The notes beneath the pieces were generated by a model, which searched no databases, had not been told where the DNA came from, and was given only the letters and a program-made list of their open reading frames with translations. From Candidatus Saccharicenans sp. (GTDB lineage: Bacteria > Acidobacteriota > Aminicenantia > Aminicenantales > Saccharicenantaceae), in contig DAOLNQ010000003.1 of NCBI GenBank assembly GCA_035416665.1, positions 7,475 through 71,474 of the forward strand: DNA of 64,000 bases, read 5' to 3'. Positions within the stretch are counted from its first letter, which is position 1, and every line of letters starts with the position of its first letter. The translations under genes and the position numbers were made by a program. Shown one piece after another: positions 28,292-28,513 of this stretch.

Positions 28292-28513
28292 ATGCGCAAA
28301 AAAGTTTTTGTGGGGGTACTTATTCTTTTAATCACTATTTCGGCTCTTATTGCTGTCCCAAATTTCACTCCTAAAGCAAGGGCTTCAGCGCCGGAAGTTT
28401 ATGGGCAGTGGATTGGCGATGACACCTGTGGACCTGGTGGCTGGAGATGCTGGCAATATGAGTGTTACAACTGTTGGTGCCGTGATGTAGGCTCTGGTGA
28501 TTGCTGTAATTAA
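28292..28513 (+). CDS. small Sec-secreted Cys/Trp-rich peptide precursor (candidate bacteriocin-like or disulfide-rich peptide)
   Basis: 73 aa. A strong RBS is present (AAGGAGG, then 7 nt, then ATG). The Sec-type signal peptide is MRKKVFVGVLILLITISALIAVPNFTPKARASA, with an AxA cleavage site. The mature 40 residues are PEVYGQWIGDDTCGPGGWRCWQYECYNCWCRDVGSGDCCN, containing 7 Cys and 5 Trp. Confidence 0.6.
   Translation: MRKKVFVGVLILLITISALIAVPNFTPKARASAPEVYGQWIGDDTCGPGGWRCWQYECYNCWCRDVGSGDCCN

Follow-up and report, generated by a model that had tools for sequence, protein, structure and literature searches.

The stretch of Candidatus Saccharicenans sp. DNA analyzed here (64,000 nucleotides of contig DAOLNQ010000003.1, referred to as the window) contains a small gene on its forward strand for a Cys-rich peptide with a predicted export signal. 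The gene comes first in a conserved cassette, in which it is followed by a hairpin, a gene for a propeller protein (~368 aa), and a gene for a thioredoxin-like (Trx-like) protein (~160 aa). We propose that the peptide is an extracytoplasmic partner of the adjacent propeller, held by three disulfides and matured by the Trx-like protein of the cassette; the probability that we attach to this reading is about 45%. In uncultured phyla, small Cys-rich proteins that are exported hardly ever receive an annotation. This one carries two functional clues, a dedicated Trx-like gene and, in a distant relative, an NHL-type propeller fused to part of the peptide module. The value of the finding lies in this trio and the fusion, which lead to a specific, testable hypothesis. 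The genes and their parts are as follows.

28292..28513, forward strand: peptide gene of 73 codons, encoding MRKKVFVGVLILLITISALIAVPNFTPKARASAPEVYGQWIGDDTCGPGGWRCWQYECYNCWCRDVGSGDCCN
28292..28384, forward strand: predicted signal peptide or possible signal-anchor, residues 1–31 (MRKK, core V5–V22, N24-F25, A29-R30-A31)
28385..28510, forward strand: predicted exported Cys-rich domain, residues 32–73 (alignments, dN/dS, profile search)
28511..28513, forward strand: stop codon TAA of the peptide gene, read from the sequence
28572..29678, forward strand: propeller B, 368 aa, predicted six-bladed NHL/DUF5128-type, with its own putative signal peptide (PDB sequence, AlphaFold, and Foldseek comparisons)
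29675..30172, forward strand: Trx-like protein, 165 aa, predicted to be membrane-anchored, motif FHSHDCPQC (open reading frame coordinates and motifs)

The Peptide Gene and Its Family

The start codon of the peptide gene lies 7 nt downstream of a strong ribosome-binding site (RBS), AAGGAGG. The exact protein is found on 34 public contigs, where it is labeled "hypothetical protein, Candidatus Saccharicenans sp." Proteins, metagenome contigs, metagenome-assembled genomes (MAGs), and the neighborhoods of related propeller and Trx-like genes yielded a family of about 12 sequence variants (window, L001–L006, L007/L016, L010, L012, P0029, L018–L020, L021/L022/L024, and L029–L031), and all named taxa among them are Aminicenantes or Acidobacteriota. 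Eight variants align from N24 to C72 as a gapless block of 49 residues, and in the L029/L031 variant one extra residue is inserted in the linker. In most pairs the synonymous sites are saturated; dN is 0.16–0.5, and dN/dS, where estimable, is 0.05–0.5.

The start, stop, and length of the open reading frame (ORF) are identical in all close relatives; thus, it is not a fragment of another frame. Since it is conserved in relatives with saturated dS and dN values of 0.16–0.5, it is also far beyond chance. A chance ORF or other-frame fragment could be suspected from the short length and from the homologues in L010 and L012, which had been overlooked by gene callers. Set against this are the strong RBS, the start, stop, and length conserved in about 12 variants, a dN/dS well below 1, and the exact protein on 34 contigs; the probability of a chance ORF is practically nil, and the conservation pattern refutes it. 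The peptide gene is a genuine, stand-alone gene under purifying selection. The first-pass annotation, made from the letters alone, had considered that in related genomes the peptide might turn out to be part of a larger, differently framed gene. No close relative has such an arrangement, and a partial instance is provided by one distant in-frame fusion (L027), described below.

Database searches support a narrow distribution. The peptide gave no match at E ≤ 0.1 against Pfam and NCBIfam, nothing in a PADLOC scan, and no meaningful match in a PDB sequence search. An exhaustive hidden Markov model (HMM) search of 1.84 billion representative proteins recovered the family itself and two weak matches (P0031 and P0032). 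Peptide patterns found no relative among 185,579 species genomes, and a propeller alignment run against the same genomes found four loci, all in Aminicenantes or Acidobacteriota MAGs. Of the candidates from a metagenome scan, two were true loci and one, L017, was spurious; tblastn of plasmids with the peptide and propeller queries gave no match. The propeller and Trx-like families form 19 and 6 clusters, respectively, among 5.8 billion proteins and, where named, come only from Aminicenantes/Acidobacteriota MAGs. The earlier statement that no close family is recognizable is therefore borne out by the Pfam, NCBIfam, PDB sequence, and HMM searches: the peptide represents an uncharacterized, lineage-restricted small-protein family that belongs to no described family.

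The two weak HMM matches, P0031 (1158 aa) and P0032 (448 aa), are eukaryote-like Ser/Thr/Pro-rich repeat proteins with no Pfam family. Their repeat, D-x2-C-x2-GG-x-G-C-[FY]-x3-C-R-[FY]-C-K, has the Cys spacing of C46..C61 in the peptide, and their E-values of 2e-5 and 3e-4 are sums over 8 and 4 repeats, respectively. The relation is unproven and could reflect a shared mini-fold or chance.

Six Invariant Cysteines behind a Predicted Export Signal

The first-pass annotation had placed a mature peptide of 40 residues at 28391–28513, i.e., from the first base of the P34 codon to the end of the stop codon. This stretch does hold seven Cys in its final 28 residues, a C-terminal CC, and a Gly-rich turn (GPGG). 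Five Trp had been claimed, but four are present (W40, W51, W54, and W62). Cys and Trp together make up 11 of the 40 residues, and none of the window's other stop-to-stop segments (688 in all, each 40 aa or longer) reaches this value; the runner-up has 9. The Cys motifs are C58-x2-C61, C61-W-C63, and C71-C72. The exported part has a net charge of −4, within a family range of −1 to −5, i.e., the family is anionic throughout.

Six Cys (C46, C53, C61, C63, C71, and C72) are invariant wherever the cassette is intact. Other members have E or L in place of the seventh, C58; an additional Cys occurs at position 56 in some members, and in L010 the CC is extended to CCCC. The odd Cys count reported earlier thus holds for the window peptide and is lineage-specific, as family members have 6, 7, 8, or 10. 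A free thiol, a metal ligand, or an intermolecular link had been deduced from that odd number. As a general statement this fails, since the invariant core has six Cys and C58 is dispensable. There is no invariant Trp: Y or F can stand in for W40, W51, and W54, and L020 has L in place of W62. N24-F25, K/R28, A31, P34-E35-V36, and G38 are invariant, whereas the N-terminal hydrophobic core varies freely.

The proposal of an N-terminal leader agrees with the features found, which are of the Sec type as far as the sequence can tell: an n-region of +3 (R2, K3, and K4), an 18-residue hydrophobic core with a mean Kyte–Doolittle hydropathy of 3.0 over residues 5–22, and an AxA motif. The cleavage site had been placed after ASA (ASA/PEV). 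The AxA is there, but it is one of two overlapping motifs. A29-x-A31 (ARA|SAPEV) is kept in every homologue, and A31-x-A33 is also present in the window peptide, with A33 replaced by R or M in other family members. Because A29-x-A31 is the sole AxA shared by all sequences, predicted cleavage after ARA (A31) is at least as likely as after ASA (A33). The N-terminus may also stay in place as an uncleaved membrane anchor. The hydrophobic helix is 18–20 residues long, and AlphaFold predicts a helix for residues 2–25. Confidence in the AlphaFold model of the peptide is low, with a predicted local distance difference test score (pLDDT) of 66, and a Foldseek search with this model against solved structures gave none at E < 1. 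Likenesses to a single propeller blade or a WW domain had E-values above 2 and were not used.

A Conserved Three-Gene Cassette

The full set of peptide, propeller, and Trx-like genes is present in the window and also in L001–L006, L010, L012, L016, L020, L022, and L029–L031. All three products carry a predicted N-terminal export or anchor sequence. The spacer between the peptide and propeller genes is 50–80 nt, and the propeller stop and the Trx-like start share 4 nt (ATGA) in the window, L010, and L012. An AraC-family regulator lies 5' of the cassette in L010, L012, and L016.

No conserved RiPP-modifying enzyme of the radical S-adenosylmethionine (SAM), YcaO, or LanM type lies beside the peptide gene in the cassette loci. 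Likewise, none of the cassettes contains a C39 ATP-binding cassette (ABC) exporter, a double-glycine leader, or an immunity gene of a known type; the propeller and Trx-like genes are the only ones there. No metal or redox gene is conserved near the cassettes.

Some other genes in the vicinity may be mentioned. The ABC genes of the window (21100..22685) lie outside the cassette; L021, with a broken cassette, has them at an equal distance. Radical-SAM genes occur near cassettes or orphan propellers in L012 (33..1181 and 6651..8003) and L008 (4681..5619), among them one with a SPASM and one with a B12-binding domain; they are not conserved across loci and are probably unrelated to the cassette. 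About 7 kb downstream in the window and outside the cassette, a multihaem cytochrome c gene (37413..38783; NapC/NirT, c554, and MtrC-like matches) is followed by an ORF of 390 aa without a Pfam family (38806..39978).

The Propeller and the Thioredoxin-like Protein

Propeller B adopts a six-bladed NHL-type fold according to its predicted structure. The AlphaFold model has a pLDDT of 90.6 with strands throughout, and its top Foldseek matches are 4raa (BF0058; E 9e-12) and 3s9j (E 2e-10), followed by NHL domains with E-values of 1e-9 to 1e-10. In sequence, phmmer matched it to the NHL domains of TRIM2 and Thin (E 1e-13), and its score against Pfam DUF5128 (PF17170), 22.4 bits, is just under the gathering cut-off of 22.9.

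The Trx-like family has no Pfam model of its own. Its invariant pattern, YLFLYFHSHDC-P-x-C ... I-S-P ... G-V, fits a thioredoxin fold, with C-P-x-C and I-S-P invariant in eight homologues. The active-site motif is CP[QSEK]C, or CLDC in L027. Pfam matches were below threshold (Glutaredoxin, 20.6 bits with a cut-off of 22.9; Thioredoxin_8, 15.2 bits), and the best PDB profile match was a glutaredoxin with an E-value of 0.56. The family also has a conserved S-F/Y-x-Y-K/R just after the N-terminal transmembrane helix. Literature searches for DUF5128 and NVEALA gave no papers. Bacteroides small proteins named NVEALA may be encoded next to six-bladed propellers, which did not count as evidence here.

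A Peptide–Propeller Fusion

In L027, three genes lie in a row: a propeller with 28% identity, a gene of 408 aa (6158..7384), and a Trx-like homologue with 39% identity (E 1e-40) and the motif CLDC. The first ~68 residues of the 408-aa product consist of a signal helix, SNF, and IRGVWVDGECMGDGNECDIG. They match positions 1–53 of the peptide HMM with 21.8 bits and E 3.5e-5 among 4201 ORF segments, where the next, unrelated segment has E 0.78; the score rises to 25.5 bits when only the N-terminal 120 residues are considered. The remainder of the gene is a complete propeller, again with 28% identity (E 4e-32). The fused half-module comprises the signal, NF, and GxWVDxxCxGxGxxC. Gene fusions of this kind classically indicate that two products act in physical contact.

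Promoter, 5' Leader, and Hairpin

The region around the peptide gene contains three further elements.

28131..28160, forward strand: putative promoter, with TTGACA (28131..28136) behind an A-tract, an 18-nt spacer, and a weak −10 element TAACCT (28155..28160)
28165..28291, forward strand: 5' leader of ~125 nt, ending in the RBS AAGGAGG (28278..28284), defined by sequence alignment
28525..28560, forward strand: GC-rich 14-bp hairpin without a U-tract between the peptide and propeller genes, predicted by folding

The promoter block, AAAAAATACTTGACAAAG, is conserved in a second copy in the window and in L001, L020, L021, and L022. The leader is conserved in the same loci and in both window copies (28165..28291 and 26460..26586), for example in GAAATGAAAAAGACAAG and TTAAATTTAATTTTTATGATTAAGGAGG. 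It matched no Rfam family, and RNAalifold gave no convincing consensus structure. A small ORF in the leader (28175..28279) was rejected as a gene, as L001, L020, and L021 do not share its ATG.

The 76-nt stretch that includes the hairpin (28505..28580) has a minimum free energy of −25.9 kcal/mol and a z-score of −5.1 relative to shuffled sequences. A stable hairpin is predicted in most loci, and those of L001, L016, L012, and L018 have the same position and unrelated sequences, which suggests transcript attenuation or stabilization.

Turnover of the Locus

In related MAGs, the cassette occupies the same chromosomal site, with a flavin adenine dinucleotide (FAD)-linked oxidase gene on one side and an ACT-domain gene on the other. 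The window has a tandem duplicate of the cassette, which is partly erased.

26395..26625, forward strand: second promoter and leader copy with 13 relic codons of a deleted peptide gene (GTG at 26587, MRKRFSFVSGKRE), recognized by alignment with L021 and L022
26587..27735, forward strand: propeller A, a paralogue with ~80% identity that lacks both a peptide and a Trx-like gene and probably has its own start at ATG 26626

The relic codons read in frame into propeller A, and no Trx-like gene comes after it; L021 and L022 have an intact peptide gene at the relic position. Propeller A scores 25.8 bits against DUF5128, above the cut-off of 22.9. Other MAGs show other states. L022 has a single full cassette, in which the peptide start ATG is changed to ATA (~1390); L021 has the peptide and a deletion fusion of the propeller and Trx-like genes (5400..6396); L024 (UBA1061, 2734..4104) has a peptide with C53R and lacks the Trx-like gene; and the signal peptide is frameshifted in L018 (2700..2975) and in L019. 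Since its states differ among related MAGs, the cassette is accessory and subject to fast turnover.

Proposed Function and Alternative Explanations

In the mechanism that we favor, a single promoter would drive the peptide, propeller, and Trx-like genes, and the hairpin probably keeps the peptide mRNA in excess. Sec would export the peptide, with a cut probably after A31 (or A33). An acidic, aromatic-rich domain of ~42 residues would be locked by three disulfides among the six invariant Cys, with C58 of the window peptide as an extra thiol. The disulfides would be introduced or shuffled by the membrane-anchored CPxC protein, and the folded peptide module would dock on the secreted six-bladed propeller. 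The conserved cassette, the L027 fusion, the predicted export or anchor sequences of all three products, and the six invariant Cys speak for this mechanism. Precedents are NHLRC2 and SOQ1, where a Trx fold and an NHL propeller form a unit that acts on a partner with Cys, and MauD, which is dedicated to folding a small Cys-rich subunit.

Several observations weigh against this mechanism. The L027 fusion spans only the N-terminal half of the module, with two Cys, and comes from a single contig; in L028 (1164..1382), the same module is a stand-alone ORF, again with only two Cys, behind a propeller. Orphan propellers without a peptide or Trx-like gene exist in the window (26587..27735), L008, and L013, so a propeller can function alone. 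Invariant N24-F25 and PEVxG would be odd in a discarded signal peptide, the assignment of a thioredoxin fold draws on motifs and sub-threshold Pfam matches, and the host is an anaerobe.

A secreted, disulfide-stabilized bacteriocin-like toxin is an unlikely alternative. The Trx-like protein would fold the peptide, and the periplasmic propeller would be an immunity or binding protein; this would be a bacteriocin of an unusual, anionic kind, with immunity provided by a propeller. Such a role would suit a small Cys-rich product, predicted to be exported by Sec, that heads an operon with a hairpin behind its gene, and also the narrow, patchy distribution and the flux of the locus (duplication, deletions, loss of the Trx-like gene, start-codon loss, and frameshift). 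Orphan propellers could be immunity-only genes. Yet, the exported part is anionic in every member, and there is no antimicrobial-peptide, defensin, knottin, or bacteriocin family for it in Pfam/NCBIfam and none in the PDB by sequence or, with the model of pLDDT 66, by fold. The cassettes contain no outer-membrane exporter, double-glycine leader, or C39-ABC transporter, the plasmid search gave no match, and the L027 fusion is hard to square with a toxin–immunity pair. The conserved position of the peptide gene before the propeller and Trx-like genes makes a partner of the propeller more likely than a free antimicrobial.

Equally doubtful is a role as a thiol redox relay or metal binder, either a split analogue of SOQ1/NHLRC2 or a periplasmic metallothionein-like protein, in which the Cys are functional thiols, cycled or maintained in the reduced state by the Trx-like protein, with the propeller as a scaffold. 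The number of extra Cys does vary (positions 56/58; CCCC in L010), and CxxC, CxC, and CC motifs are present. The predicted membrane anchor of the cassette's Trx-like protein also counts for this explanation, since periplasmic reducing pathways typically employ anchored proteins of the Trx fold (TlpA, ResA, and CcmG). The relay proposed for SOQ1, in which the Trx-like domain passes redox equivalents to a pair of Cys in a small domain at the C-terminus, with the NHL domain as a scaffold, provides a precedent (bioRxiv 10.1101/2021.03.16.435614). However, an even, invariant core of six Cys is the usual signature of structural disulfides, and the peptide has no pattern of His or Met ligands. The Trx motif also differs (CP[QSEK]C or CLDC vs. 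CCINC of NHLRC2/SOQ1), and no metal or redox gene is conserved nearby. The peptide could also be read as the precursor of a subunit with a cofactor derived from Cys/Trp, like MauA (with propeller MauB and MauD) or the γ subunit of QHNDH, as the cassette has the same three types of parts, i.e., a propeller, a small secreted subunit containing Cys and Trp, and a Trx-fold CxxC protein. This is very improbable: Trp is replaced in homologues (W40, W51, and W54 by Y/F; W62 by L in L020), the cassettes have no conserved maturase (MauG, MauE, radical-SAM, or flavoprotein), and the predicted propeller is a six-bladed NHL type, whereas that of MauB is seven-bladed.

Comparison with Known Systems

Defensins, knottins, and disulfide-rich bacteriocins, to which the first-pass annotation had likened the peptide, resemble it in size and in the six-Cys core. 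No positive evidence for that likeness was obtained, as the peptide is anionic, has no family or fold match, and comes without a dedicated exporter or any immunity gene of a known type. The solved structures most like propeller B are those of exported six-bladed Bacteroides propellers (DUF5128; 4raa, BF0058; and 3s9j, DUF4221), which share 10–14% identity with it; they are structural-genomics proteins without an assigned function and hence offer no explanation of the peptide.

Methylamine dehydrogenase combines a small secreted Cys-rich subunit, MauA, with the propeller MauB and the Trx-fold protein MauD. MauA has ~130 residues, in comparison to ~42 in the peptide domain, the propeller of MauB has seven blades rather than the six of the cassette's NHL propeller, and the cassette lacks the conserved Trp pair, MauG, and MauE. 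MauD is a dedicated Trx-fold protein that forms the disulfides of MauA (bioRxiv 10.64898/2026.03.05.709764). The heat-stable enterotoxins STa and STb of E. coli are made as precursors of 71–72 aa with a Sec signal and six (STa) or four (STb) Cys in the C-terminal mature part, and their disulfides, including those of the 72-aa STa precursor, are formed in the periplasm by the Trx-fold oxidase DsbA (PMC6356903). They show no sequence similarity to the peptide and depend on housekeeping DsbA and TolC without a propeller, in contrast to the dedicated Trx-like protein and propeller here.

In working principle, the closest systems are the units of a Trx fold and an NHL propeller in NHLRC2 and SOQ1; these Trx-fold catalysts for small Cys-rich secreted proteins (MauD–MauA and DsbA–STa) are close as well. 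In NHLRC2, a Trx-like domain with the motif CCINC, or CC(I/V)NC, is fused to an NHL propeller in one chain (PMC6107167). In both proteins, as predicted for the cassette, a Trx-fold unit of the CxxC type and a six-bladed NHL propeller are functionally coupled on the extracytoplasmic or lumenal side. The membrane anchor of SOQ1 lies just before its Trx-like domain, and the Trx-like protein of the cassette is likewise predicted to be anchored. The small C-terminal domain of NHLRC2/SOQ1 would correspond to the small Cys-bearing module that the cassette encodes in cis. They differ in being one polypeptide, whereas three separate genes are found here (with the Trx-like and propeller genes overlapping by 4 nt), and in having CCINC in place of CP[QSEK]C or CLDC. 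No sequence homology was detected between the C-terminal domain of SOQ1 and the peptide, and the cassette propeller is nearer to the Bacteroides DUF5128/BF0058 type than to NHLRC2/SOQ1.

NHLRC2, an essential human protein, is mutated in FINCA disease, and SOQ1 controls the photoprotection of plants; for neither are the molecular clients clear yet. Should the three cassette products form one working unit, the cassette would offer a simple bacterial system for the role of Trx–NHL pairs. A stricter reading, which we consider quite unlikely, is that the cassette is a split bacterial counterpart of the NHLRC2/SOQ1 Trx–NHL redox module, whose natural Cys-rich client or relay domain has a separate small gene of its own in cis. 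If that were true, the peptide would be the long-missing kind of substrate or partner for Trx–NHL modules and also the first functional handle on exported propellers of the DUF5128 type.

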